Positions 1 through 32,000 of a DNA stretch of 32,000 nucleotides are shown here, piece by piece (the stretch's first letter is position 1; each line of letters starts with the position of its first letter). This stretch comes from Candidatus Electronema aureum (GTDB lineage Bacteria; Desulfobacterota; Desulfobulbia; Desulfobulbales; Desulfobulbaceae), in assembly GCA_004284765.1 (NCBI GenBank), contig NQJD01000008.1, forward strand, positions 64,490-96,489. Direction: 5' to 3'. A program made the translations under genes and the position numbers. The notes below the pieces were generated by a model. The model was not told the DNA's origin and ran no database searches. It saw only the letters and a program-made list of their open reading frames with translations.

Positions 1-619
1 AGGCGTGCTGCTGCTCACCGGCAACGACCTTGCTGCTGATCCGCAGAGCGCAGGCAGCGTGGTGATTGAAGGCACCCGGAACGGCAGCGCAGTGCAGACA
101 CGCCTGCTGCGGGTCGGACCAAGCGAGATCATGCTGATGCCGGACATCCCGGCGCAGGATAATTCGTGGAATAACGAATACACAGTCACGGTCAACGCCC
201 GCTACAGCGAGCATGGCACGCCGCGCACCGGCACATGCAGCCGCAAGCTGCGCACGCCGCTGCTGATCAACGGGCTGGCGTTTGAGACCGGCCCCGGCAT
301 CCTCAGCGGTGAGACAGACGCGCCTACTGCGCGGTTGAGCAGCGGCACGGCCAGCGCGTCCGAGCTACTGCGCATTCAGGCTCTGGTGGACAGCCGCACC
401 GGTCAGCTCACCTTGCGCCTCCTCGACATGCAGGAAGGCGGCAGGGCAGGCGCGGCGGTCGCAGTGACAGTGGATGGAGACTACGAGCTGCCCGGCTTCA
501 GCGGCTCGGCGGTGCAGTCGCTCACCATTGCGGTTGAGAATCTCGCCGGACTGATCAGCCTGACACGGGACAACTACAGCGGCAGACTGGTGGATGTGTT
601 GGATGTGAGGATAGAGTAA
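1..619 (+). CDS. 3' part of an HU-HIG/DUF4469-like putative DNA-binding protein, cut by the window edge; paralog of 14670..15746
   Basis: The frame is open from the window edge (frame of nt 2) to the stop at 617-619. About 50% aa identity by eye to the C-terminal ~200 aa of the 14670..15746 product. Shared motifs: GVLxLTG, PDIPAQ..WNNE, HGTPRTG, LRIQA, LLDM, GFSGSAV, YSGRLVD(V/I)LDV. Confidence 0.7.
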   Translation, partial: GVLLLTGNDLAADPQSAGSVVIEGTRNGSAVQTRLLRVGPSEIMLMPDIPAQDNSWNNEYTVTVNARYSEHGTPRTGTCSRKLRTPLLINGLAFETGPGILSGETDAPTARLSSGTASASELLRIQALVDSRTGQLTLRLLDMQEGGRAGAAVAVTVDGDYELPGFSGSAVQSLTIAVENLAGLISLTRDNYSGRLVDVLDVRIE

Positions 620-3473: not shown

Positions 3474-4793
3474 TTATTCAATATTCCCGCTCCGCTGCAC
3501 CCGTGCTGTGCTCTCTGGGGCAATGTACCATGCTCCCCCAGTATTGCCACGAAGGTCATTATCCTCGAAGATGCCGCCTCCATCTAAAATCACCGCAATA
3601 CCCACACTGCTGTTCTGCGTGATGCGGTTGCGGCGCAGGATCGGGTTGCTGTCTGTCCTAATAATTAAGTTGCCGCCTGTCGTAATTACGCCTGGCATGA
3701 TCTCCACGCCAGGCCCCTCATTGGCGAATATCTCGTTGTCCTCCAGCGTCGCTTGGCTGTTCCTCATATAAATGCCGCCTCCGCTGTATATCGACGAAAG
3801 AAAACCAAAGCGGCCATTCATAAAGATACGGTTGCGGCGCAGGGTTGGGTTGCTGCCTGACATGATAATACCGTATAGTACGCCGTCAAATATCTCGTTG
3901 TCCTCCAGCGTCCCTTGACCATTCTCCATAAAGATACAGTAACACCTAATGTGCAACTCTTTTTAGCTTACAAGTTACACGAAATATCCTCTTGAAAATA
4001 CAGGAATTGTACTGAACAGCCGATATTGAAAACACCAGAGATCGTATGCGCAATGGGTTTGCTTTAAAACATTTCAGCAAATGAGAGCCTACTGTTTCCC
4101 GGCAAACTTCCTGATTATGTGCAGACGGCGAGATGCCCAAGTTGGGATCACAATCAAATTAAAATTGCAGTAAGACTGTCTTCAGCGACACACTATCCCA
4201 AAAAGAGTTGCACATTAGGTACAGTAACTATTCCCGCCATGAATGCGACAGCGGCGGATGAGTGGAGTTGCGCCCTTGTGGATTCTCACGCAGTCATTAC
4301 CGCTGCCTGAAATGTCGCAATCCTCTAGTTCAAGCTTGCCCTTGGCAATCGCGACACAGCAATACAGAGTTAGGTTGGCGATCCGTCCATTCTCTGCGTC
4401 AAACCGAACGGCATTGCTGCCATCACCTGCAATCATAATGTCGCTTCGCTCCCCTTCTCCTATGATCTCGACTGGTTTGTCAATCACTATGCTTTCTTTG
4501 TACAAACCAGGCCGAACAAAGATTCGGGTGCCTGCTTTTACGGCCTTTAGCGCATTAGTGATTGTTGCATAGTCGTCGTGATTGGACGAATCCACCACCA
4601 CGGTTGGTGGCCCGTTCGCATACTTATCATCCTTATTCACATAGCTCAGAAAGGCAAGTGGTGTCCGGCTCAATTCGGGTTCCTCCGCAGCGGTGTTGGT
4701 TGCTTGTTCCTGCATCAGCCGCATAATAACTGCGTTTCTGCCGCGCTGCAAGCGGTTCAGACTGCGGCGCGGCTGGTGACGGCACGGCATCAC
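3474..4793 (-). pseudogene. Right-handed parallel beta-helix repeat protein (NosD/pectate-lyase-like fold), interrupted by a MITE
   Basis: ORFs 4215..4793 and 3474..3956 both carry beta-helix repeat units (ATLEDNEIF, NPxLRRNRI). Removing 3944-4228 in silico joins them in frame: ...RIHGGNSYC-IFMENGQGTLEDNEIF... The result is one ORF of about 345 aa. Confidence 0.8.
3944..4220. mobile_element. 277-bp non-autonomous element (MITE) with perfect 21-bp terminal inverted repeats and an 8-bp target-site duplication
   Basis: The left repeat at 3944-3964 (acctaatgtgcaactcttttt) is the exact reverse complement of 4200-4220. Direct repeats acagtaac flank it at 3936-3943 and 4221-4228. The interior is AT-rich and has no ORF. 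Confidence 0.8.
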
Positions 4794-12644: not shown

Positions 12645-14126
12645 CTACTCGTAACGGGCGGCCCAAATATCGTACTCGCTGATATCACGACCAAACATAT
12701 TGGGGCGGAAATCGTCAGTTTGGAGCCAGATGGCAAGAGCATTGCCCGCCGCATCAATCGCGATCTGAGGAACTTCCGCATTGTCTGCGTCGGTCGTGAT
12801 GGACTGGGCCTTCTCCCAGCCGCTGCCAAGGACATATCGACTGGCCCGGATATTGCAACCATTAACGACAATACCAGTTGGCTTGCTGCTGCACTGGCTC
12901 CAAACAGCAAGGGCATTGCCTGCTCTGTCGAAAGCGATCTTGGGATGATACGCATGGTTCATGGCAGCACCGGTTTCGATGCGCTGGGCCTTCTGCCAGC
13001 CGACATCTGCTGTGTAACGGTTGAACCAGAGGTTGGTCCGGTCGGCATCACGCTGACACTCGGACCAGACAGCAAGGCCATTGCCCGCTCCATCGAAGGC
13101 GACCTCAGGAGGTTCCGCACAGCCTGGTGCGCCGTTATTGATGCGCTGGGCTTTCTGCCAGCCGTTGCCTGCCACATAACGGTTGCTCCAGATATTATCC
13201 TCATGCCCGTTGTCGCGTTGCTGCCAAACAACAAGGGCGTTGCCAGCTTCATCCACAGCAATCTCGTGATTCGGACTTGCATTCTTCTTGATGATCTGTG
13301 CCTTCTGCCAGCCCTTGCCGACCTCATAGCGGTTAGACCAGAGATTTGTACACGTGGGATCTTCATCTTTCCCCCAGACGGCAATGGCGTTGCCTTTTTT
13401 GTCCATTGCAACTTTGAGAAGTTTTGGATGGACATTGACACCTATAACATCAGTGCCCCCAGCATCGGTCGCTATAAATTGGATATCACCCCAGCTTTTG
13501 CCTGACATGTAGTATTTAGCTATAATATTTCCTTCTAAAGTCCAAGCAACAACAACATTGCCTGCTTTATTCATTGCAATCCTGAGATCGGATACAGAAT
13601 TAGCATTTTTAGAATTGAATAAACCGTTAAAGAGGCTGGTCTCCTTGATTACCTGTGCCTCCTGCCAGTCTTTACCAGACTCGTAGCGATCAGTCCATAT
13701 TTTGCCACTCCGACTCGAAGCAACAATGGCATTTCCACGTCCATCAATTGCAACATTGGAATGGTATATGTCGTTGATTTGAATTGACCGAGCTGTTCCC
13801 CAGCCTCTGCCGGCCTTGTAACTATTGATCCACATATTTCTGCGGTCGTTGTCACTCTTCCACATATTTCCGCTGTTGTTGTCACTCTGATTCCAGAAAA
13901 CAATGACATCACCAGCCTCGTTGAACGAAACTTCGAGACTGTACTTTTCGGCATCATCACCAGCTTTGATATGTTTAGGAGCATGCCATGTCTTTTTATT
14001 CGCCGGTGCTGCCGGGGTGGTGCGGTCGAGCACATCAGCGGCACCGCCTGCTGGAACAGCAAGGCAGAGAGACGCAAGGATGGCCTTGCTGACAACGGTT
14101 CGGGCAAAGAAGGAGTTACGTCTCAT
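12645..14126 (-). CDS. Secreted protein with eight tandem ~45-60 aa repeats (propeller-like), family not recognised
   Basis: Signal peptide (AILASLCLAVPAGGAA). The recurring unit is p.IA.D..GNA.AVW....(variable)..W..RY..G.GW.KAQ.I, seen eight times. Confidence 0.75.
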   Translation of the reverse strand: MRRNSFFARTVVSKAILASLCLAVPAGGAADVLDRTTPAAPANKKTWHAPKHIKAGDDAEKYSLEVSFNEAGDVIVFWNQSDNNSGNMWKSDNDRRNMWINSYKAGRGWGTARSIQINDIYHSNVAIDGRGNAIVASSRSGKIWTDRYESGKDWQEAQVIKETSLFNGLFNSKNANSVSDLRIAMNKAGNVVVAWTLEGNIIAKYYMSGKSWGDIQFIATDAGGTDVIGVNVHPKLLKVAMDKKGNAIAVWGKDEDPTCTNLWSNRYEVGKGWQKAQIIKKNASPNHEIAVDEAGNALVVWQQRDNGHEDNIWSNRYVAGNGWQKAQRINNGAPGCAEPPEVAFDGAGNGLAVWSECQRDADRTNLWFNRYTADVGWQKAQRIETGAAMNHAYHPKIAFDRAGNALAVWSQCSSKPTGIVVNGCNIRASRYVLGSGWEKAQSITTDADNAEVPQIAIDAAGNALAIWLQTDDFRPNMFGRDISEYDIWAARYE

Positions 14127-14669: not shown

Positions 14670-15746
14670 ATGACAACCATTCAATGGCGGCCCCAAGTCA
14701 ATGCCCTCACCAAGCCCCAATCCTACCGCCCGCAAGTGGTGCCGCGCGGCACATCCGGCTACGACAAGATGGCTGTCGACATCTCGACTGCTCATCCGGT
14801 GTATAACGCTGACCTGATTCGCTCGGTCGCGCCGCTGATCATGGACTGGATACAGCAGGAGCTGATCAGCGGCTTGCAGGTGACGCTGGAGGATGCCTTC
14901 ACCTTTCATCCCTCGATGACTGGAAAAATGGCCGGGCCGGATGACCCGCTGCCGAATGCCAATGAGCTGCTGCAAGTCAATGTGTACGCCGCCCGCGCCT
15001 TTGTCCAAGCTGTCCGCCAAAAGGCCAAGCTGGAGCGGCTGCCGATGAATGAGAAGCTGCCGCAGGTCACGTCAAGCGAAGACACCAAGCTCAAGCTGGC
15101 CGATGTCCTCAACCCGAACGGCGTGCTGCGCCTGACCGGCAGCAATCTCTGGTTTGATGAGAACGACCCGGACAGCGGCTGCACCATCAGCGGCACCCAG
15201 AGCGGCGTGAAAAAGCAGAGCACCTTCGCCTCAGTCTCCAACAGCGAGATACTGCTGGTGCCGGACATCCCGGCTCAGGCCCATCCGTGGAACAACGAAT
15301 GCGCCTTGAGCCTCACCACCCAATATACCGCGCACGGCACACCGCGCACCGGCATCTACCGCAGGCGGCTGCGCAGCCCGCTCACTGCGACGAAGATGGG
15401 CCACCCTAATCCGCCGGAGACCGGTATTCTTAGTGGCAATGGAGCCAGCCCCTTGGTCAGCATCAAGGGAGGGACGGTCTCGACAGACGAGCGGCTGCGC
15501 ATTCAGGCGGTTCTTGACGTGCAGGCAGACCGGCTGCTCTTCAGCTTGCTGGATATGAAGGAAAATGGCGCGGCAGGAGCAGAGGTGCCTGTGGCTGCGA
15601 ACGGGAGCTTCACCCTGCAAGGCTTCAGCGGCTCGGCAGTCAGCAGTTTGACGATCAGCGTGAATGACTATGCCAGCCTGAAGAAGCTGGTTCACGATCA
15701 GTACAGCGGCAGGCTGGTTGATATACTGGATGTGAAGGTGGCGTGA
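14670..15746 (+). CDS. HU-HIG-like N-terminal domain + DUF4469-like (Ig-like) domain protein, putative DNA-binding
   Basis: The N-terminus (NALTKPQSYRPQVVPRGTSGYDKMAVDI...LISGLQVTLEDAFTFHPSMTGKM) follows the HU-HIG pattern known from Bacteroidota. The middle segment LRLTGSNLWFDENDPDSGC resembles DUF4469. Assignment is from memory of the family pattern. Confidence 0.7.
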   Translation: MTTIQWRPQVNALTKPQSYRPQVVPRGTSGYDKMAVDISTAHPVYNADLIRSVAPLIMDWIQQELISGLQVTLEDAFTFHPSMTGKMAGPDDPLPNANELLQVNVYAARAFVQAVRQKAKLERLPMNEKLPQVTSSEDTKLKLADVLNPNGVLRLTGSNLWFDENDPDSGCTISGTQSGVKKQSTFASVSNSEILLVPDIPAQAHPWNNECALSLTTQYTAHGTPRTGIYRRRLRSPLTATKMGHPNPPETGILSGNGASPLVSIKGGTVSTDERLRIQAVLDVQADRLLFSLLDMKENGAAGAEVPVAANGSFTLQGFSGSAVSSLTISVNDYASLKKLVHDQYSGRLVDILDVKVA

Positions 15747-15929: not shown

Positions 15930-16706
15930 TCATGTTTGTTTGAACTGAGCCAAGGCCGCCTTGAGCATCTCCGCTGTGCCTTCATGTCCTGCGCTGGCAG
16001 CAATAAATCCGCCACGCTGTTGCACTAACTCTATCACCAGCTGCGATGCGCTTCGTAGCGTTAAAGGAAACACGGCATTTCGCAGCAAGGTCAAGTCATC
16101 ATCTGTATCACCTGCGGCGCATCGAATGTAATGGGTTTGCCCAAATGCTGCTTGAAAGGCTGCGTATTTATCCCCAAGTTTAGGGATAAGAGCTATCTTG
16201 CGCCTTCCAGCAATGATCCTGAACTGTTTACCTATAATAGTTGGCAGTTCTGCAATAAAAGCTGCTGCAAACTGTTGTTCTTTGACAGAGTAGAGTAGAA
16301 CAGACTGATGGCTTCCTTGATAATATTCTGTGTCAATCGCCAAATTGTGCTGTCGAACTATTTCTTTGATCTGAGCATGAGCAGAAGCAAGATTAACTTC
16401 GGATAATACTCTTTCATTCCAAGCAGGACAGCCGTCAATACGTGTTCCGTGTTCCAATATCCAGCCAGTAATCCGTAAACCAGCAGTAGCAAAATGCGCT
16501 CGAAAATCAGCAGTTGTTGTCATAGACCTGCCTGTTGCAACATAGAGATCGGTTAATTCTGCCAATTCAAGCAGTAGTTCAATGACACGGTAGTCTATGA
16601 CCGAATCAGTTGTCCGACCCCGGATAGGTAAACCATCTGGCAGCGGACTATTATGATTTAGAGTTCCATCAAGATCAAAGACAAAAGCTGCTTTTCTTCT
16701 TTCCAT
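15930..16706 (-). CDS. HAD-superfamily (IIB/Cof-like) phosphatase
   Basis: Motif I FVFDLDGTL, motif II YVATGRS, motif IV AAGDTDDDLTLL. The start lies 3 nt after the stop of the upstream HAD gene. Confidence 0.8.
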   Translation of the reverse strand: MERRKAAFVFDLDGTLNHNSPLPDGLPIRGRTTDSVIDYRVIELLLELAELTDLYVATGRSMTTTADFRAHFATAGLRITGWILEHGTRIDGCPAWNERVLSEVNLASAHAQIKEIVRQHNLAIDTEYYQGSHQSVLLYSVKEQQFAAAFIAELPTIIGKQFRIIAGRRKIALIPKLGDKYAAFQAAFGQTHYIRCAAGDTDDDLTLLRNAVFPLTLRSASQLVIELVQQRGGFIAASAGHEGTAEMLKAALAQFKQT

Positions 16707-16709
16707 CTT

Positions 16710-17447
16710 TTAGCTATGATGATCTGCTAATTTGGCATAAGCCCAGCGCAACATATCCTCTGCTGCTGCATGAGCAGTGAAAGGTGAGCAGTAACCGTTT
16801 TTTCCTTTTACAATCTCTTGTATTTCAGGACAGGCCGTACTCAGCGTAACTGAATGCGTGCTTTTCTGTAGCAGCTGCATATCGTTGAGATCGTTTCCTA
16901 AGGAAATGTATGGCTCGACATTGAACTGGGCAAGACCAAGCATCTTGTCAGGCATCTGAGGATAGATAAAAATCTTCGGGTGCTGATGACAAACATAACC
17001 GTTCTCTTGCGTTTCCTTTAACAGTTGCTGAACAAGAGCTGCTGGATTTTCATATCTGTTTGGTAGGATAAACCCTACAGAGCTTTCATACCCCAGAATT
17101 GGTTCCCAATCGACAGGAACCTTGTCTGCAAATCGCCATTTTCTTTTGTGTTGGTTTGTACTGCTTATATCAGTTTTGACAATGAAACCATTCTCAAGTA
17201 CAAACCCGGCAAAGTGTACTTTTGTAAGCTGATTGGTTATTTTTTCAACGCTAAAGGCATTTCTCCCGGTTGCAATAAAAGTCGGTAGTCGCTGACTGAT
17301 TTCAGCCAGCAGCTCAACAGTTTTACCAGAAAGATAGCAATCCCTTGAACGCCCTTTGATGATGTAGGATTCCGGCTCATAATGCAGAAGCGTTCCATCA
17401 AGGTCAACAACAACTGCTTTGTCGGGATGGCCTTTGCGTATGTCCAT
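16710..17447 (-). CDS. HAD-superfamily (IIB/Cof-like) phosphatase
   Basis: Motif I VVVDLDGTLL, motif II FIATGRN, motif IV SLGNDLNDMQLL. The ATG directly abuts the stop of the upstream gene. Confidence 0.8.
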   Translation of the reverse strand: MDIRKGHPDKAVVVDLDGTLLHYEPESYIIKGRSRDCYLSGKTVELLAEISQRLPTFIATGRNAFSVEKITNQLTKVHFAGFVLENGFIVKTDISSTNQHKRKWRFADKVPVDWEPILGYESSVGFILPNRYENPAALVQQLLKETQENGYVCHQHPKIFIYPQMPDKMLGLAQFNVEPYISLGNDLNDMQLLQKSTHSVTLSTACPEIQEIVKGKNGYCSPFTAHAAAEDMLRWAYAKLADHHS

Positions 17448-18440
17448 TTATCCGGCAATATGTAAAGAACAGGCAGCACGAGTGCGGTAATTTCGTAAAA
17501 ATTGCTGATTGTATTGCACTGGCACCTTGCGCTGATCAGCCAAAGTCAGCAGCAGTGAAAAATGCTCGCGCACATACTGGGCATCATCAACAAAAAACAA
17601 AGTGCTGGGCAAGGCGTTGATCAATGCCCTGCAAACTTCGTTACTGTGCAGACGCAGCTCAGTTTTTTGATAGAATTTTTCGCCGCCACCAAGCGGGAAC
17701 GCAGCAGGCCGGGAAGGGCCTGATTGGTACCAAGTGGCAACTAAGTCCTTGCGGACATAGCGTTCTGGAAATGTATAAGCCGCAAAAAAACTTTGCTCAT
17801 CAATAAAAAAAGTCCTTGAAAAGCCAAGCGTTGCCAGCCCTGTGAAACAGGCAGAAGGACAGAAAATGTCTTCTTGGCAGCCTGAAAAATCAGCCCAGCC
17901 CCAAGGATCATTGAGGACAGCCAAAGGCCCTGCACCAAGCCGAGCAAGTTCTCTGGCTACCCCGCCGCGCCCTGTCCAGCCGTCCACGAAAATAATTTTT
18001 CGTTCTGGAAAATCAGCCTGTAGGCGGGATAAGGCCACGCGGTCGATACCGATACCGACAAAAAGCGACAGAGCCGCTGCAACTGATCCGGGTAGCATTG
18101 TGCAGAGCCATTGAGCAATCGGAACGCCAGCCCTGAGAATCGCGGCAAAAAGCAGACGCTCTGGCTGCGGCTCCCATTGTATAATCGCCGCTGCGAGCCG
18201 TTGCGCCGCTTCCCGAATCTGCTCATTGTCAATTTCTACTGCCACGGTGTGCCAGAAATCATCATCAAGATCAGGTTCAGGTGAGGGAGCTGACCAAAAG
18301 GTATTTTCACCAGAGTATGCTTGATTCAAGCTGCGAAAACGATGTGGCTCGTCAAAAGGATGAACTTCTTCAAGAAGATTGACGTAGAGATGCTGCTGCC
18401 AGATATTTCCTTCCGCAGAAGGAAGAATCGCCTTGTGCAT
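17448..18440 (-). CDS. PRTase-fold protein of the StiP / PRTase_1 (Ter-cluster-associated) family
   Basis: IIFVDGWTGRGGVARELA and DIFCPSACFTGLATLGFSRT match the family-typical FVDGWTGKGAI and IPSACLNSTVSGL..SRT motifs, recalled from memory. Confidence 0.6.
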   Translation of the reverse strand: MHKAILPSAEGNIWQQHLYVNLLEEVHPFDEPHRFRSLNQAYSGENTFWSAPSPEPDLDDDFWHTVAVEIDNEQIREAAQRLAAAIIQWEPQPERLLFAAILRAGVPIAQWLCTMLPGSVAAALSLFVGIGIDRVALSRLQADFPERKIIFVDGWTGRGGVARELARLGAGPLAVLNDPWGWADFSGCQEDIFCPSACFTGLATLGFSRTFFIDEQSFFAAYTFPERYVRKDLVATWYQSGPSRPAAFPLGGGEKFYQKTELRLHSNEVCRALINALPSTLFFVDDAQYVREHFSLLLTLADQRKVPVQYNQQFLRNYRTRAACSLHIAG

Positions 18441-18460
18441 ATCAAATCGCCACGCAGAGG

Positions 18461-19381
18461 TTATGAAAGCGAAAACTCTTCAACAGTCATCCCCGTTGTT
18501 TCTAAATGATCTTTTACCTTATTGCCGATCTCGTGATCAGCTGGATCGTACAATAGATGTATTGGACTTTTTATACGTTGATAATTGTATAGAAAATAAT
18601 TGCAAAAATTCACCCTGCTTTTGATGTGAATTGTATCCACAGTCCAAGGGCTGAGTGTGATGTGCTGAAATGACCTGAAGACACGGGCAGCAACGAGAAA
18701 AACTGCTGTACTTACAGCTTCGCCAATCACGAAAAGATGCTCTCCGTAATGTCTCTTGATCAGGTGCTGTTTACCGAGTTCAGCTGCCACGTTTTCTATC
18801 ATATTTTCAGGATAAGATGCTATTATCGTGTTGCTATTTTCTATTTTGTTGCAATATTCAGCTGCGGAACCGTGAATGCCTGCCAAAGAGGCAGCAGAAT
18901 GAAAAAGATACGTTTTTTCTGAGCAGCCAACTAGACGAAAAAAATCATCTTTTTGCAGTTGAGAACGAGAATCAGCAAAGGAAAAAATTCGGAAGATTTT
19001 TGCGGAAACATGTTTCTGTATCTGGTTGAGTAAATTTTTCACTGTAGTGCCGGAAGTTATTTCATCTTCAACTATCCAAATTTCTTCATAATGACCTTCT
19101 GGCAGCGGCAAAATGTGATGCGGCCCGTGTGAATGAATTTCCTGAAAAGGGATACCTGATACGCCGACGCGGCGGGTGGAACATGTCCAGTTGCACGAAA
19201 TCTTTCGACGAAGTGCCTCCATATACATCAAAAATGACGGAACAATACCTGATTCCGTTAGCCCTATCAGTAACACTTCTCCTAAAACTGGCACGTAGTT
19301 CGCTGATTCTTCAAGCAATTGAGCCAAATAGCCGCTTCCCCGCTGAAGATGTGAACAGTCGGCAGGATGCAGTTTTCCCAA
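18461..19381 (-). CDS. PRTase_2 + TRSP-like phosphoribosyltransferase domain protein; N-terminus out of frame with its likely SD+ATG
   Basis: LLIGLTESG...CSTRR...F.EIHSHGPHHIL...IWIVEDEITSGTTVKNLL (PRPP loop). The annotated frame begins at a TTG with no SD. A GAGGTG-ATG at 19447-19449 lies one frame away across an A9 tract. Confidence 0.65.
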   Translation of the reverse strand: MGKLHPADCSHLQRGSGYLAQLLEESANYVPVLGEVLLIGLTESGIVPSFLMYMEALRRKISCNWTCSTRRVGVSGIPFQEIHSHGPHHILPLPEGHYEEIWIVEDEITSGTTVKNLLNQIQKHVSAKIFRIFSFADSRSQLQKDDFFRLVGCSEKTYLFHSAASLAGIHGSAAEYCNKIENSNTIIASYPENMIENVAAELGKQHLIKRHYGEHLFVIGEAVSTAVFLVAARVFRSFQHITLSPWTVDTIHIKSRVNFCNYFLYNYQRIKSPIHLLYDPADHEIGNKVKDHLETTGMTVEEFSLS

Positions 19382-19478
19382 GAAAGAAGCGGTGAAGGCT
19401 TCTTTTCTTAAAGGATTGTTGTCTCGCTGAATAAAAAAAAATCACGCATAATTCACCTCAATTGTGTGCGCATTCATC

Positions 19479-20171
19479 TTAGGGTTGCCAGCGATAGCCC
19501 ATGCCGTATTCGGAGCGAATGGCGTTAAAAGTTGAATCTACTTCTTGAAATTTATCCCTGATTCTACGAATATGAGCGGCAATAGCATTGTTCGTAACAA
19601 TTACGCTGGCCGCTTCCATTAGCTGGTCATGATTTTTGACATGACCGGGTCGCCGGGCTAAACAGAGTAAAATCCAAAATTCAGTCAAGGTTAAGCTGAC
19701 CGGCAGACTCCGCCAATGCACTTCCTTGCGGTCTTCATCAATGCGCAGGTTTTGATGCTCGATGATTCGGTTGTTTGTACTGTTGCTACGCAGTGCCTCA
19801 ACCGTGCGGAACAGGGCAGAAATACGGGCCGGCAGAAAGTCTAAGGTAGTAGTGTCTTTGGTCAGATAATCCCAAGCACCAAGCCGCAAGCCAGAGACCC
19901 GGTCCACGTCCGAGTTACGGGCAGTAAGAAAAATGATTGGAATTACCGGCGAAAGAGAGCGCAGATGCTGGCAGAGGTCAAATCCTCCCTCCATTTCCTC
20001 GCCGAGCATAATGTCTAATACGGCAAGGTCGGGCAGGGAGCGGTCAAAAGCAGCCACAGCTTCCTTGCGGCTGCTGTAGGAGCTGACCTCGTAACCTTCC
20101 CGATGCAAAGCCTGAGCATAATTGGCCTGCAATCTGAGATCGTCTTCGACGAGAGCAATACGGTAGGTCAT
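19479..20171 (-). CDS. OmpR/PhoB-family response regulator (receiver + winged-helix)
   Basis: Receiver motifs: IALVEDD, DLAVLDIML, IIFLTAR, GAWDYLTKD. The C-terminal part has LTLTEFWILLCLA...YGMGYRW. The start is set at MTYRIALVEDD (20171). Confidence 0.88.
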   Translation of the reverse strand: MTYRIALVEDDLRLQANYAQALHREGYEVSSYSSRKEAVAAFDRSLPDLAVLDIMLGEEMEGGFDLCQHLRSLSPVIPIIFLTARNSDVDRVSGLRLGAWDYLTKDTTTLDFLPARISALFRTVEALRSNSTNNRIIEHQNLRIDEDRKEVHWRSLPVSLTLTEFWILLCLARRPGHVKNHDQLMEAASVIVTNNAIAAHIRRIRDKFQEVDSTFNAIRSEYGMGYRWQP

Positions 20172-20379
20172 GGCGGCAGTGTGGGTAATGGTCTTTTTCA
20201 GCTGAAAATATCTGAAACTGTACCAGATATTTTTTTTTTTCACCACTCTGCTTTTTTCTTGTCATAATTCGTCACACTTTTTCTTTAGCAAGTCATGATT
20301 CAGCGGCAAAGCAGTCATGGTCATTACCCAAAATACTCATAGGTAGAAACATGAGATGAAGAACAGATGGAGAACAATC

Positions 20380-21114: not shown

Positions 21115-21362
21115 CGTTCCCTCTCTCTCTTTTTCGCAGCTACCTCCCCTTTAGCTGTGAAAAAAAGAGAAAAGGGCGGCAGACGCGAAAAGTTATTTTT
21201 TTTTTCAGACCACATAAGGTACAATCTCCTTATTTCAAATGTCGCCTCGGTACGGGGCATGGATTAAATTACTGATAGGCAAAATTTTTGCTGCGGATTC
21301 AGCTTTTCTGCTGCATCTACGCGATTTGTTTTGCCAGAACGATGAACATTCAAGGAGAATCT

Positions 21363-22508: not shown

Positions 22509-22693
22509 GAAAATAAGGGATGCTGCTTATTAACTGAGCGGGGTGCCGAACTTTCTGGTTGGTGCGGGTAGATTTATCCCGCGCCGGAAAGTTGAGAAAA
22601 GCCACAGCCGTCGCGAGGCGGTGTCGGAAAGCCACGGGTCTCCATTTTGGAGACAGCCGGGTTGCCTGCTTCACATATACCAGGGAGGGTATC

Positions 22694-23386
22694 ATGAAAA
22701 CAACTCAAACAACATTAGGAGGAAAATCAAGTTTACAGAAAAGAATGACTGCGCTGGCCGGAATTCTGTTGGCCGCCGCCCTCGGTGCCTGCCAAGCCAA
22801 GCCGGAGTCTGCTCTTTCTGTCCCTCATGCCGACACAGTCAGCAATGCTGATCAAAGCGGCTGGATTTCATTAAGCAATGTGGTGTCGGAAGCTGAAGCG
22901 GCCACAGCTGCTCCTGCCGCCGGTTACGGAGGCAAAGGAACAGTTGATCCGGCAGCAATGGTGGCAGCGCATAATCGTTGGCGGACAAAAGTCGGTGTAT
23001 CATCCGGACTCAGGTGGTCGGACAAGCTGGCTGGCGTGGCTCAAGGCTGGGCGAATCAGCTGAAAAACGAAGGCTGCGCTATGTACCACAGCGGCAATGG
23101 CTACGGTGAGAACATTTACAAAGCCAGCGCACTGATGTGGTCGGATGGTCGTCGCGATTTACAGAAGAAAACACCGCAGCAGGTCACGGACAGCTGGGGC
23201 AGCGAAATCAAATTCTACGATTACGAGAGCAACAGCTGTAGCGGAGTCTGTGGTCATTACACCCAAGTAGTGTGGAAAAACACCCAAGAAGTCGGCTGCG
23301 CCATGTCGGTCTGTGGCGACAATTCGCAAATTTGGGTATGCAGTTACTATCCCGCAGGCAACGTAGTTGGTCGCAAACCGTACTGA
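22694..23386 (+). CDS. CAP/SCP/PR-1-like domain lipoprotein
   Basis: GGAGG lies 5 nt before the ATG. Lipobox ALGAC. CAP motifs: AAHNRWR..VGV, HSGNGYGENIY, CGHYTQVVWKNT.EVGCA, VCSYYPAGNVVGRKPY. Confidence 0.85.
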   Translation: MKTTQTTLGGKSSLQKRMTALAGILLAAALGACQAKPESALSVPHADTVSNADQSGWISLSNVVSEAEAATAAPAAGYGGKGTVDPAAMVAAHNRWRTKVGVSSGLRWSDKLAGVAQGWANQLKNEGCAMYHSGNGYGENIYKASALMWSDGRRDLQKKTPQQVTDSWGSEIKFYDYESNSCSGVCGHYTQVVWKNTQEVGCAMSVCGDNSQIWVCSYYPAGNVVGRKPY

Positions 23387-23556: not shown

Positions 23557-24183
23557 ATGATCACAAAGAAAACATTGAGCATTCTCCCTTCATCTTTTTT
23601 TCTCTCTATCTTCTGTCTTGCTGCCTGCGGCCAAACCCAGACCATCCGCGTGGATGTGTCTGCCGATCATCCTGACGGCGTTGTGCTGTTAGATGGGTAT
23701 TATGAAGAAACTGATACCTTTGCCGAAGGAGTAGGCACGGTTGATTCGACCGTGATGCTGGCCACCCACAACCGCTGGCGTTCTGAAGTCGGCGTTCCTG
23801 ATCTCGTTTGGTCGGAATCTTTAGCCCAAGCTGCACAAAGTTGGGCTGATCATCTGAGCAACAACGGCTGCTGCGCTATGTCTCACAGCGACAGCGGCTA
23901 TGGCGAAAATATTTACAAAGTCAGTGCCGTGGTTTGGTCGAACGGTCGCCGGGAAATTCAGAGCAGAAGTCCGCAGCAGATCGTTGACGGCTGGGCCAGT
24001 GAAGCCAAGGACTATGATTACGAAAACAACACCTGCAACGGCATTTGCGGTCATTACACTCAAATAGTCTGGCGTGACACCACAGAAATAGGTTGTGCAG
24101 TTGCCGTTTGCCCGGATAAATCGCAGATGTTGGTCTGCAATTACGCGCCGACTGGCAATGTTGAAGGGCAAAAACCGTATTGA
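23557..24183 (+). CDS. CAP/SCP/PR-1-like domain lipoprotein (tandem paralog)
   Basis: Lipobox CLAACG. Motifs: ATHNRWRSEVGV, SHSDSGYGENIY, CGHYTQIVWRDTTEIGCA, VCNYAPTGNVEGQKPY. Confidence 0.85.
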   Translation: MITKKTLSILPSSFFLSIFCLAACGQTQTIRVDVSADHPDGVVLLDGYYEETDTFAEGVGTVDSTVMLATHNRWRSEVGVPDLVWSESLAQAAQSWADHLSNNGCCAMSHSDSGYGENIYKVSAVVWSNGRREIQSRSPQQIVDGWASEAKDYDYENNTCNGICGHYTQIVWRDTTEIGCAVAVCPDKSQMLVCNYAPTGNVEGQKPY

Positions 24184-31439: not shown

Positions 31440-31695
31440 TGTAGCTTATTCGTTGTGATGGTTAGAGCTACCATCACAGGAGCCGGGGAGAGCTTGGCGT
31501 GCCCCTTAAGGTTTCATGAACGGCAGCCAAGGAGAAAACCCTGCATGCGCAAGGCAAGCAGGCGCGATTGGCGGATTGATTTTCTCTTCAAAGGTGCTGT
31601 CATGTTCTATAGTGTTTAAGTTTTAAATCAGTTGTGTTATAATTTACAACCTGAGAGGTTATTTTTTTATTTAACTAATTAACGTGTTACGTGAA

Positions 31696-31878
31696 ATGGC
31701 TAAAGCATACAGCAACGACTTGAGAGAAAGGGTGATCAAGAGTTATGAATCAGGGATATCCAAAGGAGAAATTCTTAATATTTTTATTATAAGTTTGGAC
31801 ACCCTGAACAGATGGATAAGAAAATACAACGAGACAGGAAGTGTTGAGCCTTATAAAAGGACAAAAAATATCGGGTAA
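31696..31878 (+). pseudogene. IS630/Tc1-family transposase N-terminal HTH fragment
   Basis: MAKAYSNDLRERVIKSYESGISKGEILNIFIISLDTLNRWIRKYNETGSVEPYKR matches the IS630 OrfA-type HTH. The ORF stops after 60 codons. No DDE region appears in any frame up to the window end. The context is AT-rich. Confidence 0.5.
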
Positions 31879-32000
31879 TAGAGATCTGTGAGTGATCAAT
31901 GAAATAAAATACAATCGTTGTAGTGATTAATAAATCTCCAAACAGATGCAGTTAAGTTTTCAATGCTTCTCGAAAACGACAATGTCTTCCTGACTAATGC

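Follow-up and report, generated by a model that had tools for sequence, protein, structure and literature searches.

Genes of the segment

We analysed a 32,000-nucleotide stretch of the genome of the freshwater cable bacterium Candidatus Electronema aureum (contig NQJD01000008.1; hereafter the window), in which five minus-strand genes at positions 15930-20171 encode a response regulator (RR), two phosphoribosyltransferase (PRTase)-fold proteins of the PRTase_2 and StiP families and two HAD phosphatases. Here we describe these genes in relation to the Ter-associated biosynthetic module, to the two-component system beside which they lie and to a break in the reading frame near the 5' end of the PRTase_2 gene. 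An initial annotation of this DNA had listed five open reading frames (ORFs) at these positions, and we confirmed their coordinates as well as the intergenic gaps of 20, 0 and 3 nucleotides (nt) among the last four genes. Its domain calls for the RR, PRTase_2, StiP and the two HAD phosphatases held in Pfam and NCBIfam profile searches, and all of the motifs it had quoted were found in the translations (STRR..FQEIHSH and VEDEITSGTT, FVDGWTGRGG and PSACFTG...GFSRT). By contrast, its additional label of TRSP for the PRTase_2 protein had to be dropped, as PF12500 was undetected even at E ≤ 1 in this protein and in its relatives P0243, P0258 and L002. The features of the segment are as follows (aa, amino acids).

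19479..20171, minus strand: PdsR-like OmpR-family RR, 230 aa; Pfam Response_reg 75 bits and Trans_reg_C 44.8 bits
19450..19478, minus strand: spacer between RR and PRTase_2, 29 nt, carrying the Shine-Dalgarno sequence GAGGTG (19459-19454), read from sequence
18461..19449, minus strand: PRTase_2 gene in two frames; ATG at 19449-19447, run of nine T (T9) at 19441-19433, main frame 19441-18461
18461-19381, minus strand: PRTase_2 ORF as originally listed, starting at TTG 19381, the first in-frame canonical start
19433..19441, minus strand: T9 homopolymer, candidate site of transcriptional slippage or -1 frameshifting, where the ATG frame would pass into that of PRTase_2
17448..18440, minus strand: StiP-like (former PRTase_1) protein of a divergent subfamily, 330 aa; PF11202 73.5 bits
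16710..17447, minus strand: HAD-IIB (Cof-type) phosphatase 1 (HAD1), 245 aa; Hydrolase_3 46.6 bits, Cof subfamily match E = 3.8e-12
15930..16706, minus strand: HAD-IIB-like phosphatase 2 (HAD2), 258 aa; Hydrolase_3 21.7 bits (cut-off 20.9)

The PF11202 match of the StiP-like protein (cut-off 28.7) covers only positions 58-224 of the 245-position profile. For both HAD proteins the nearest NCBIfam family was the Cof-type HAD-IIB subfamily, and their motifs are DLDGT and GNDLND in HAD1 and DLDGT and GDTDDD in HAD2.

A seven-gene island between pdsR and pdsS is split in E. aureum

Within the window these genes have no Ter partner. The initial annotation had pointed out that Ter, ATP-grasp and lyase genes were missing, and this was borne out: when the 20 largest neighbouring ORFs were searched against Pfam, TerD, TerC, TelA, ATP-grasp, lyase and histidine kinase were all absent, as were sortase and VIT-vWA proteins, and tblastn searches of the window with the TerF, TerD, TerB and kinase proteins of a sister genome gave no match. 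The segment had accordingly been read as a self-contained, Ter-independent minimal nucleoside pathway under an orphan RR, and two Desulfonema loci (L003 and L008) that carry PRTase_2 and StiP with no Ter gene within 10 kb also favour that reading. However, the sister genome and the remainder of the E. aureum chromosome tell against it.

In the closest relative with a long contig (GCA_026645415.1, hereafter L005), which served as our reference for identities and for the ratio of nonsynonymous to synonymous differences per site (pN/pS), the genes run in the order FKBP, DZR, small ORF, RR, PRTase_2, StiP, HAD and HAD, directly followed by a vWA-TerF-like gene, TerD and TerB (opposite strand) and then by a 718-aa histidine kinase. 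By tblastn, synteny between the window and L005 extends from FKBP to HAD2, with protein identities of 92% for the RR, 61% for PRTase_2, 79% for the StiP-like protein, 69% for HAD1 and 61% for HAD2. Homology ends after HAD2, and the window's junction between HAD2 and a HU-HIG-like gene is confirmed by an independent short-read contig of E. aureum (L001). With the L005 kinase as query we recovered an 80%-identical orthologue (P0125) on the same 2,938,053-bp (2.94-Mb) E. aureum chromosome as the window, at a second locus (OW818638.1, 2352310-2374460) that has TerF-like, TerD and TerB genes on one strand and the kinase on the other. This chromosome also encodes a protein (P0001) that matches the StiP-like protein of the window at 100% identity. 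All four genes of the block are intact and 71-89% identical to their L005 counterparts (TerF-like 83%, TerD 89%, TerB 71%, kinase 80%). A search of the genome for Ter genes, which the initial annotation had proposed, thus located them as a block at this second locus. Its statement that the RR has no histidine kinase is right for the window, but the RR is not an orphan, given that it is orthologous to the regulator that normally adjoins this kinase and that a cognate-type kinase lies elsewhere on the chromosome. With TerF, TerD, TerB and the kinase directly after HAD2 in L005, and the same block kept in E. aureum, we consider a Ter-independent minimal pathway quite improbable.

Linkage to Ter genes extends to relatives of the window enzymes. 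In the 14 loci of the window's StiP subfamily that we examined, drawn from a survey of genome contigs that is a sample rather than a census, PRTase_2 plus StiP form the conserved core, with one HAD in most, and the usual partners are TerB, TerD and often a Na/Ca exchanger or a P-type ATPase. The TerD and TerB genes that adjoin subfamily members in Desulforhopalus, Desulfocapsa, Calothrix, Dendronalium and others uphold the affiliation with the Ter-associated PRTase/HAD module that had been claimed for the segment. TerD/TerB linkage is thus present in L005 and in most subfamily loci and absent from the window; in E. aureum these genes are on the same chromosome at a different locus. Neither TerC nor TelA was found in the subfamily loci examined, in L005 or at the second E. 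aureum locus.

These comparisons show that a seven-gene island (PRTase_2, StiP-like, HAD, HAD, vWA-TerF-like, TerD and TerB) sits between the RR and kinase genes, hereafter pdsR and pdsS, in the Electronema lineage, and that in E. aureum this island is split between HAD2 and TerF, with pdsR and the four enzyme genes here and TerF-TerD-TerB together with pdsS elsewhere. The simplest history would take three steps, starting from an ancestral order of DZR, RR and kinase, into which the seven-gene Ter island would have been inserted between RR and kinase in the Electronema lineage to give the state seen in L005, after which one inversion or translocation, with its breakpoint between the convergent HAD2 and TerF genes, would have given the E. 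aureum state. The observed orientations can be reached by a single inversion from the L005 state but not from separate loci, which favours an L005-like ancestor. No breakpoint repeats were found between the HAD2-downstream and TerF-downstream regions. The GC content at third codon positions (GC3) of the island genes, 0.34-0.45, is lower than that of the RR and kinase genes (0.54-0.56), which fits a foreign origin of the island. Overall GC content is less telling. The initial annotation had described the whole segment as lower in GC than its flanks, which is true of PRTase_2 (0.41), HAD1 (0.43) and HAD2 (0.45) but not of StiP and the RR (both approximately 0.505), and the contrast arises mainly because the low-coordinate flank is unusually GC-rich (0.60-0.63, against 0.52 on the high-coordinate side).

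We think it likely, on balance, that the segment represents the biosynthetic half of a stress-response island of the Ter type (TerB/TerD/TerF-associated) in E. aureum. The apparent arrangement of an orphan regulator beside enzymes, with no Ter genes, would then derive from insertion of the island followed by rearrangement, which calls for no new regulatory design and counsels caution in annotation.

Two further observations concern the ends of the rearranged DNA. At the position that TerF occupies in L005, the window has a 358-aa HU-HIG/DUF4469-like gene (14670-15746, plus strand; GC 0.605, GC3 0.77) of a multi-copy family, 48% identical to a partial paralogue at window positions 2-613 and 52% identical to an L005 copy at 1135-2211, a different position. 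The window and the second-locus stretch examined have no overlap except for a short multi-copy intergenic repeat at the end of the window (31608-32000). The last 127 bases of the window match a stretch near the TerF-TerD-TerB-kinase locus at 100% identity, and the 260 bases beside them match a different stretch of that locus at 95-98% (copies at 3924-4050 and 18504-18884 of L009).

The regulator and kinase match the PdsR/PdsS pair

The best NCBIfam model for the RR was TIGR03787, the dedicated sortase system response regulator, at 305.7 bits (second-best CreB, 141.8 bits), and the kinase of the second-locus type matched TIGR03785 over its full length at 548.5 bits. Both proteins therefore match the models of the dedicated sortase system end to end, although both score just under the NCBIfam cut-offs (335.7 and 612.2 bits, respectively). 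The RR is 85% identical to that of Candidatus Electrothrix laxa, in which RR and kinase are neighbours with 73 nt between them and the same DZR gene upstream, and 81% identical to that of Thermodesulfobacteriota strain B35, whose orthologous RR and kinase (the latter 65% identical to the E. aureum kinase) adjoin a sortase and a VIT-vWA target in the layout typical of the dedicated sortase system. Compared with L005, the RR gene has a pN/pS of 0.05. By profile match and gene neighbourhood, the RR and the kinase are identified as orthologues of the PdsR/PdsS pair of the dedicated sortase system, and insertion of the island between pdsR and pdsS accounts for the position of the RR beside the enzymes. 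Unlike in that system, neither the window nor the DNA up to 10 kb from the kinase contains a sortase or target, and the E. aureum pair is interrupted by the Ter island and physically separated.

A PdsS mutation in Shewanella algae was associated with a 126- to 799-fold rise in the expression of the three neighbouring sortase-system genes, together with increases of 4.8-fold in pdsS and 18-fold in pdsR (PMC11580497). In E. aureum, the gap between pdsR and PRTase_2 is 29 nt long and no terminator-like site was predicted in it, and for these reasons the four enzyme genes are probably co-transcribed with pdsR and would hence fall under PdsS/PdsR control.

Two non-coding elements were noted near the genes of this pair. 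The intergenic region between the RR gene and the divergent small ORF-DZR genes has a block (20256-20326) that is conserved between E. aureum and L005 and not in Electrothrix laxa, with repeated CATGAC/ATGAC motifs approximately 20 nt apart, and it is a possible OmpR-family (PdsR) binding site. At the other locus, the divergent region between TerB and the kinase has an element, ACGCAGTATATATCAAGCAG, that is shared by E. aureum (L009 9818-10000) and L005 (14630-14743) and does not occur in the window; as for a regulatory motif common to both halves of the island, the element CAGTATATATCAAGCAG of this L005/L009 region had no match in the window.

PRTase_2 has a likely recoding site at a conserved T9 run

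The PRTase_2 start that had been listed, TTG 19381, needs correction, as homology to the N-termini of relatives runs 20 codons further upstream and ends at a TGA (19444-19442). Ahead of this point, the Shine-Dalgarno sequence in the spacer is followed by the ATG (19449-19447), which is in another frame, and then by CGT GA and the T9 run. Read without a shift, translation from the ATG would stop after 13 codons. Insertion of one T, or a -1 slip on a U UUU UUA heptamer within the run, would give a product of the form MRDFFFIQRDNNPLRKEAFTASFLGK..., colinear with MTNLHFFHLERDNNPRRKEAFTADFIGK of the relative L006. The N-terminus of the fused product, MRDFFFIQRDNNP..., can be aligned with those of P0243, L002, L006 and others, and beyond the initial MRD it exactly matches residues 7-26 of the Electrothrix sp. 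YB6 protein, which has no interruption. With this reconstructed N-terminus, the score against PF15609 (cut-off 28.8) rises from the 50.6 bits obtained from the TTG start to 58.9 bits, and coverage of the profile is extended from positions 21-168 to 8-168. The N-terminal motif R-[DE]-N-N-P-x-R..A.T.S.LGK is conserved from Desulfobacterota to cyanobacteria.

The same arrangement is found in L005, where GGAGGTG is followed by ATG TCT GA and again by T9, and the independent E. aureum assembly has T9 too. Across the 20 codons upstream of the TTG, E. aureum and L005 differ by 10 synonymous and 2 non-synonymous changes (pN/pS 0.05), and synonymous divergence between the two is close to saturation (pS 0.67-0.82). 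In other members of the group the annotated proteins are cut short at a similar place: the gene call for the 89%-identical Desulfobulbus sp. F1 protein starts at the same TTG and that for the Candidatus Electronema halotolerans protein starts even further in. Judged from gene calls alone, these additional genomes suggest that the frame break is widespread in the genus, and a frame break at T9 explains the truncated PRTase_2 gene calls in several cable-bacterial genomes.

Homopolymer tracts commonly vary through replication slippage, so the run could instead be a mutational phase-variation switch that is off at T9 and on at T10, and all three available sequences are indeed at the off length; alternatively, the protein could start at the internal TTG. 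We regard these explanations as unlikely, because exactly nine T are found in two species that have diverged to synonymous saturation and in the independent E. aureum assembly, and because a start at the TTG would leave the conserved N-terminal motif untranslated, at odds with the pN/pS of 0.05 over these codons.

Our preferred reading, in which T9 is likely a recoding site, has precedents. Runs of nine A or T are of the classic slippage-prone length, and Shigella flexneri mxiE fuses two ORFs through a U-run (PMC1088944). As in mxiE and Thermus dnaX (PMC1088944), a short ORF with a Shine-Dalgarno sequence and ATG overlaps a long ORF with a slippage-prone run at the junction, and one added nucleotide would join the frames, giving a protein colinear with orthologues encoded by a single ORF; the length of T9 matches that described in the same source. 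The E. aureum case differs in that T9 lies only 8 nt after the start codon, in that it is known from sequence alone and in that the run also holds U UUU UUA in the -1 frameshift register, so either level of recoding fits. We infer that full-length PRTase_2 requires a frame change on the conserved T9 run. The most likely of the predicted routes is slippage of RNA polymerase adding one U, the alternative being a -1 ribosomal slip on U UUU UUA. T9 would accordingly be a new recoding candidate, by slippage or frameshift, in a non-mobile cellular gene. The only other runs of at least eight A or T in the 32 kb are T11 (20230-20240, upstream of the RR gene) and T10 (21196-21205, between DZR and FKBP), both apparently intergenic.

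The island enzymes and their predicted chemistry

An AlphaFold2 model of PRTase_2 (predicted local distance difference test score, pLDDT, 87; predicted template modelling score, pTM, 0.90) had 114 matches in the PDB at E ≤ 1e-3, and each of the 50 listed of these 114 is a type I PRTase or a PRTase-fold protein such as PyrR. The protein has VEDEITSGTT as a canonical phosphoribosyl pyrophosphate (PRPP) loop, and its C-terminal half (approximately residues 200-326) forms an alpha/beta domain of its own, which by sequence is not TRSP. That the model superposes on APRT, OPRT, HGPRT and UPRT structures, and that there are weak NCBIfam matches to HGPRT and an OPRT-like protein, could be taken to mean that the segment serves ordinary nucleotide salvage with a housekeeping PRTase and nucleotidases. 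However, those NCBIfam scores are approximately 16 bits against cut-offs of 115-150, whereas the family-specific profiles PF15609 and PF11202 both match, and the distribution of the genes is patchy and Ter-linked and their GC3 is below that of neighbouring core genes. We give this explanation hardly any credence.

The StiP-like protein belongs to a subfamily of 324-397 aa which, among the matches listed, is 49-79% identical at the protein level and 45% identical for a Rhodopirellula locus found by tblastn; canonical StiP proteins are 26-39% identical to the window protein among the matches listed, against 44-79% for subfamily relatives overall. The subfamily ranges over Desulfobacterota, cyanobacteria (Calothrix, Nostoc, Hormoscilla and Dendronalium) and a planctomycete (Rhodopirellula), and residues C194, C198, H265 and C270 are invariant. 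A profile of the subfamily had six PDB matches at E ≤ 10, five of which are PRTases (HGPRT at E = 0.0066 and four UPRTs at 0.09-1.3), and FVDGWTGRGG falls on the PRPP loop in the alignment. In Foldseek searches, the model of the protein matched L7Ae/Snu13/15.5K-type proteins with a probability of 0.93-0.98 over approximately 70-86 columns, at E-values of only 0.1-0.2. Pfam gave no PELOTA_1 match to the StiP-like protein, and these structural matches hint at a PELOTA-like C-terminal domain as in canonical StiP, with the placement on the C-terminus itself part of this reading.

The canonical five-enzyme form of the Ter-associated module, as found in Psychrobacter sp. BI730 (L086), consists of ATPgrasp_Ter, PRTase_2 with TRSP, HAD, StiP with PELOTA_1 and C-C_Bond_Lyase, with scores of 175 bits for PRTase_2, 57 bits for TRSP and 272 bits for StiP. 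What E. aureum has in common with the module is a PRTase_2 enzyme, a StiP (formerly PRTase_1) protein and a HAD phosphatase in one operon, as well as the linkage to TerD/TerB that is seen in L005 and other relatives. By contrast with Psychrobacter, E. aureum is without ATPgrasp_Ter and C-C_Bond_Lyase (which are absent from the window and from the L005 locus), without TRSP on PRTase_2 and without a sequence-detectable PELOTA_1 on StiP; its gene order is PRTase_2-StiP-HAD and not PRTase_2-HAD-StiP, it has a second HAD, and its Pfam scores are far lower (PRTase_2, 59 against 175 bits; StiP, 73.5 against 272 bits). Forms of the module with fewer enzymes are recognised in the summary given in PMC11994780, and on these comparisons the window genes are placed as divergent, reduced and rearranged members of the known Ter-associated module.

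HAD1 is the orthologue of the single HAD in those other subfamily clusters that have one. HAD2 aligns with residues 17-275 of a 685-aa Desulforhopalus protein at 45% identity and with the N-terminus of a 668-aa protein from the metagenome locus L096 at 63%, and these alignments identify it as the truncated N-terminal domain (275 residues) of a 660-685 aa protein of relatives. That protein combines a HAD-like N-terminus with approximately 400 residues that have no assignment, and its L096 homologue has a marginal Hydrolase_3 match only (22.3 bits). In Desulforhopalus, Desulfocapsa and a close metagenomic relative it comes after an unannotated 429-aa protein, the two lying behind HAD in Ter islands of the Desulforhopalus/Desulfocapsa type (L002 11782-15067; L006 11808-15069; L096). 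By this comparison, Electronema appears as having lost the 429-aa gene and the C-terminal 400 residues of HAD2. The 429-aa and 660-685 aa proteins may be uncharacterised enzymes of this variant of the module. As candidates for a diverged ATP-grasp enzyme or lyase, the 429-aa and 685-aa Desulforhopalus proteins were rejected, since they had no Pfam match at E ≤ 1 and no BLASTP match to the ATPgrasp_Ter or C-C_Bond_Lyase proteins of Psychrobacter.

A truncated HAD2 and a frame break in PRTase_2 might also be early lesions in a remnant that has drifted towards pseudogenes since the split. The main PRTase_2 frame lacks an in-frame start over its first 20 codons and its N-terminus is cut by gene callers in several cable-bacterial genomes, the cable-bacterial PRTase_2 proteins have an internal deletion, and HAD2 is short of approximately 400 C-terminal residues with the neighbouring 429-aa gene of relatives gone. 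However, these lesion-like features are common to L005, where the island is contiguous, and so predate the split. All five window genes are under purifying selection, with pN/pS values of 0.05-0.35 relative to L005. For the four enzyme genes the range is 0.20-0.35 (StiP 0.20, HAD2 0.35), and they are free of internal stops despite saturated synonymous divergence, which indicates that they are functional and not decaying. The 20 codons that would be untranslatable in a remnant have a pN/pS of 0.05, and the Shine-Dalgarno sequence, ATG and T9 have been kept in both species. Decay after the split is accordingly, in our view, improbable.

The model for the Ter module, as summarised in PMC11994780 and PMC7824862 from Anantharaman, Iyer and Aravind (2012), is that PRTases and HAD enzymes generate a nucleoside-like product. 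Applied to E. aureum, PRTase_2, with its PRPP loop, would join a base-like nucleophile to PRPP, the StiP-like PRTase-fold protein would act in the same pathway, and the Cof-type HADs would remove the 5'-phosphate to leave a nucleoside-like product acting with TerB and TerD. Combined with the regulatory setting, this leads to a speculative picture in which the envelope-sensing PdsS/PdsR system of Electronema has locally lost its sortase cargo and now drives a streamlined Ter-type nucleoside-signal pathway that is throttled by programmed slippage at T9. We offer this picture tentatively and rate its chances at somewhat less than even; if true, a PdsRS-driven and T9-throttled pathway would be a rare instance, outside insertion sequences, of recoding in a metabolic gene of the cell.

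Several points weigh against the interpretation developed here, from the module to its control. The E. aureum module lacks ATPgrasp_Ter, C-C_Bond_Lyase, TRSP and a sequence-detectable PELOTA_1, so its product may differ, and the product and the roles of both PRTase-fold proteins are drawn from comparative genomics. The AlphaFold2 model of the StiP-like protein is moderate (pLDDT 70) and had no Foldseek match in the PDB at E ≤ 1e-3, and the StiP family was named a cysteine protease after work in Acinetobacter baylyi (Reichert et al. 2013, as cited in PMC11994780). The window protein shares the Pfam family PF11202 with the A. baylyi StiP but belongs to a separate, tightly conserved subfamily whose profile points to a PRTase fold. 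Adjacency to pdsR may be an accident of insertion that implies no regulation. As for T9, no RNA structure that could stimulate frameshifting was predicted downstream of the run in either species (z approximately 0 in both), and the DNA of the site was compared in two species, E. aureum (two assemblies) and L005.

The Ter module and its product were predicted in 2012. The compact, strongly conserved core of PRTase_2, a StiP-like protein and HAD, without the ATP-grasp and lyase steps, offers a simpler entry to identifying this metabolite than the five-enzyme form. Among the Desulfobacterota and cyanobacteria that have the three-gene core, some can be cultured, including Desulforhopalus vacuolatus, Desulfonema ishimotonii, Calothrix and Nostoc. 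Along with this core, the points of interest are the capture of an island inside the PdsRS pair and a conserved recoding candidate.

Other features of the window

Defence models in PADLOC gave no match to the four enzyme proteins or to TerF, TerD and TerB, and weak matches only to the RR (SduA, E = 1.3e-4, 19.6 bits) and the kinase (PDC-M43B, E = 1.3e-4, 19.1 bits). The Pfam scan of the neighbouring ORFs identified a zinc-ribbon (DZR) protein, an FKBP isomerase and CAP-domain proteins, and in addition a MoxR-like ATPase, FGE-sulfatase-domain proteins, a nitrogenase-like protein, a radical SAM protein, a lipocalin and a HU-HIG-like protein.

Three side observations concern these neighbours. A cyclic di-GMP-I-UAU riboswitch aptamer was found at 22592-22670 on the plus strand (Rfam RF03168, 66.3 bits against a gathering threshold of 65.9, E = 1.9e-12), upstream of an ORF for a secreted CAP/SCP-domain protein (22559-23386), with a second CAP-domain gene next to it (23557-24183). 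On the minus strand, positions 12645-14126 encode a 493-aa protein, predicted to be secreted or lipoprotein-like, in which a motif of the type G-N-A-[IL]-[AV]-V-W is repeated many times; it matched no Pfam family and gave a weak PDIAV-lipoprotein match (E = 4e-7, 29.7 bits against a cut-off of 90). Finally, two adjacent short minus-strand ORFs (3474-3956 and 4215-4793) both match right-handed beta-helix/NosD/pectinesterase models and may be pieces of one disrupted gene.

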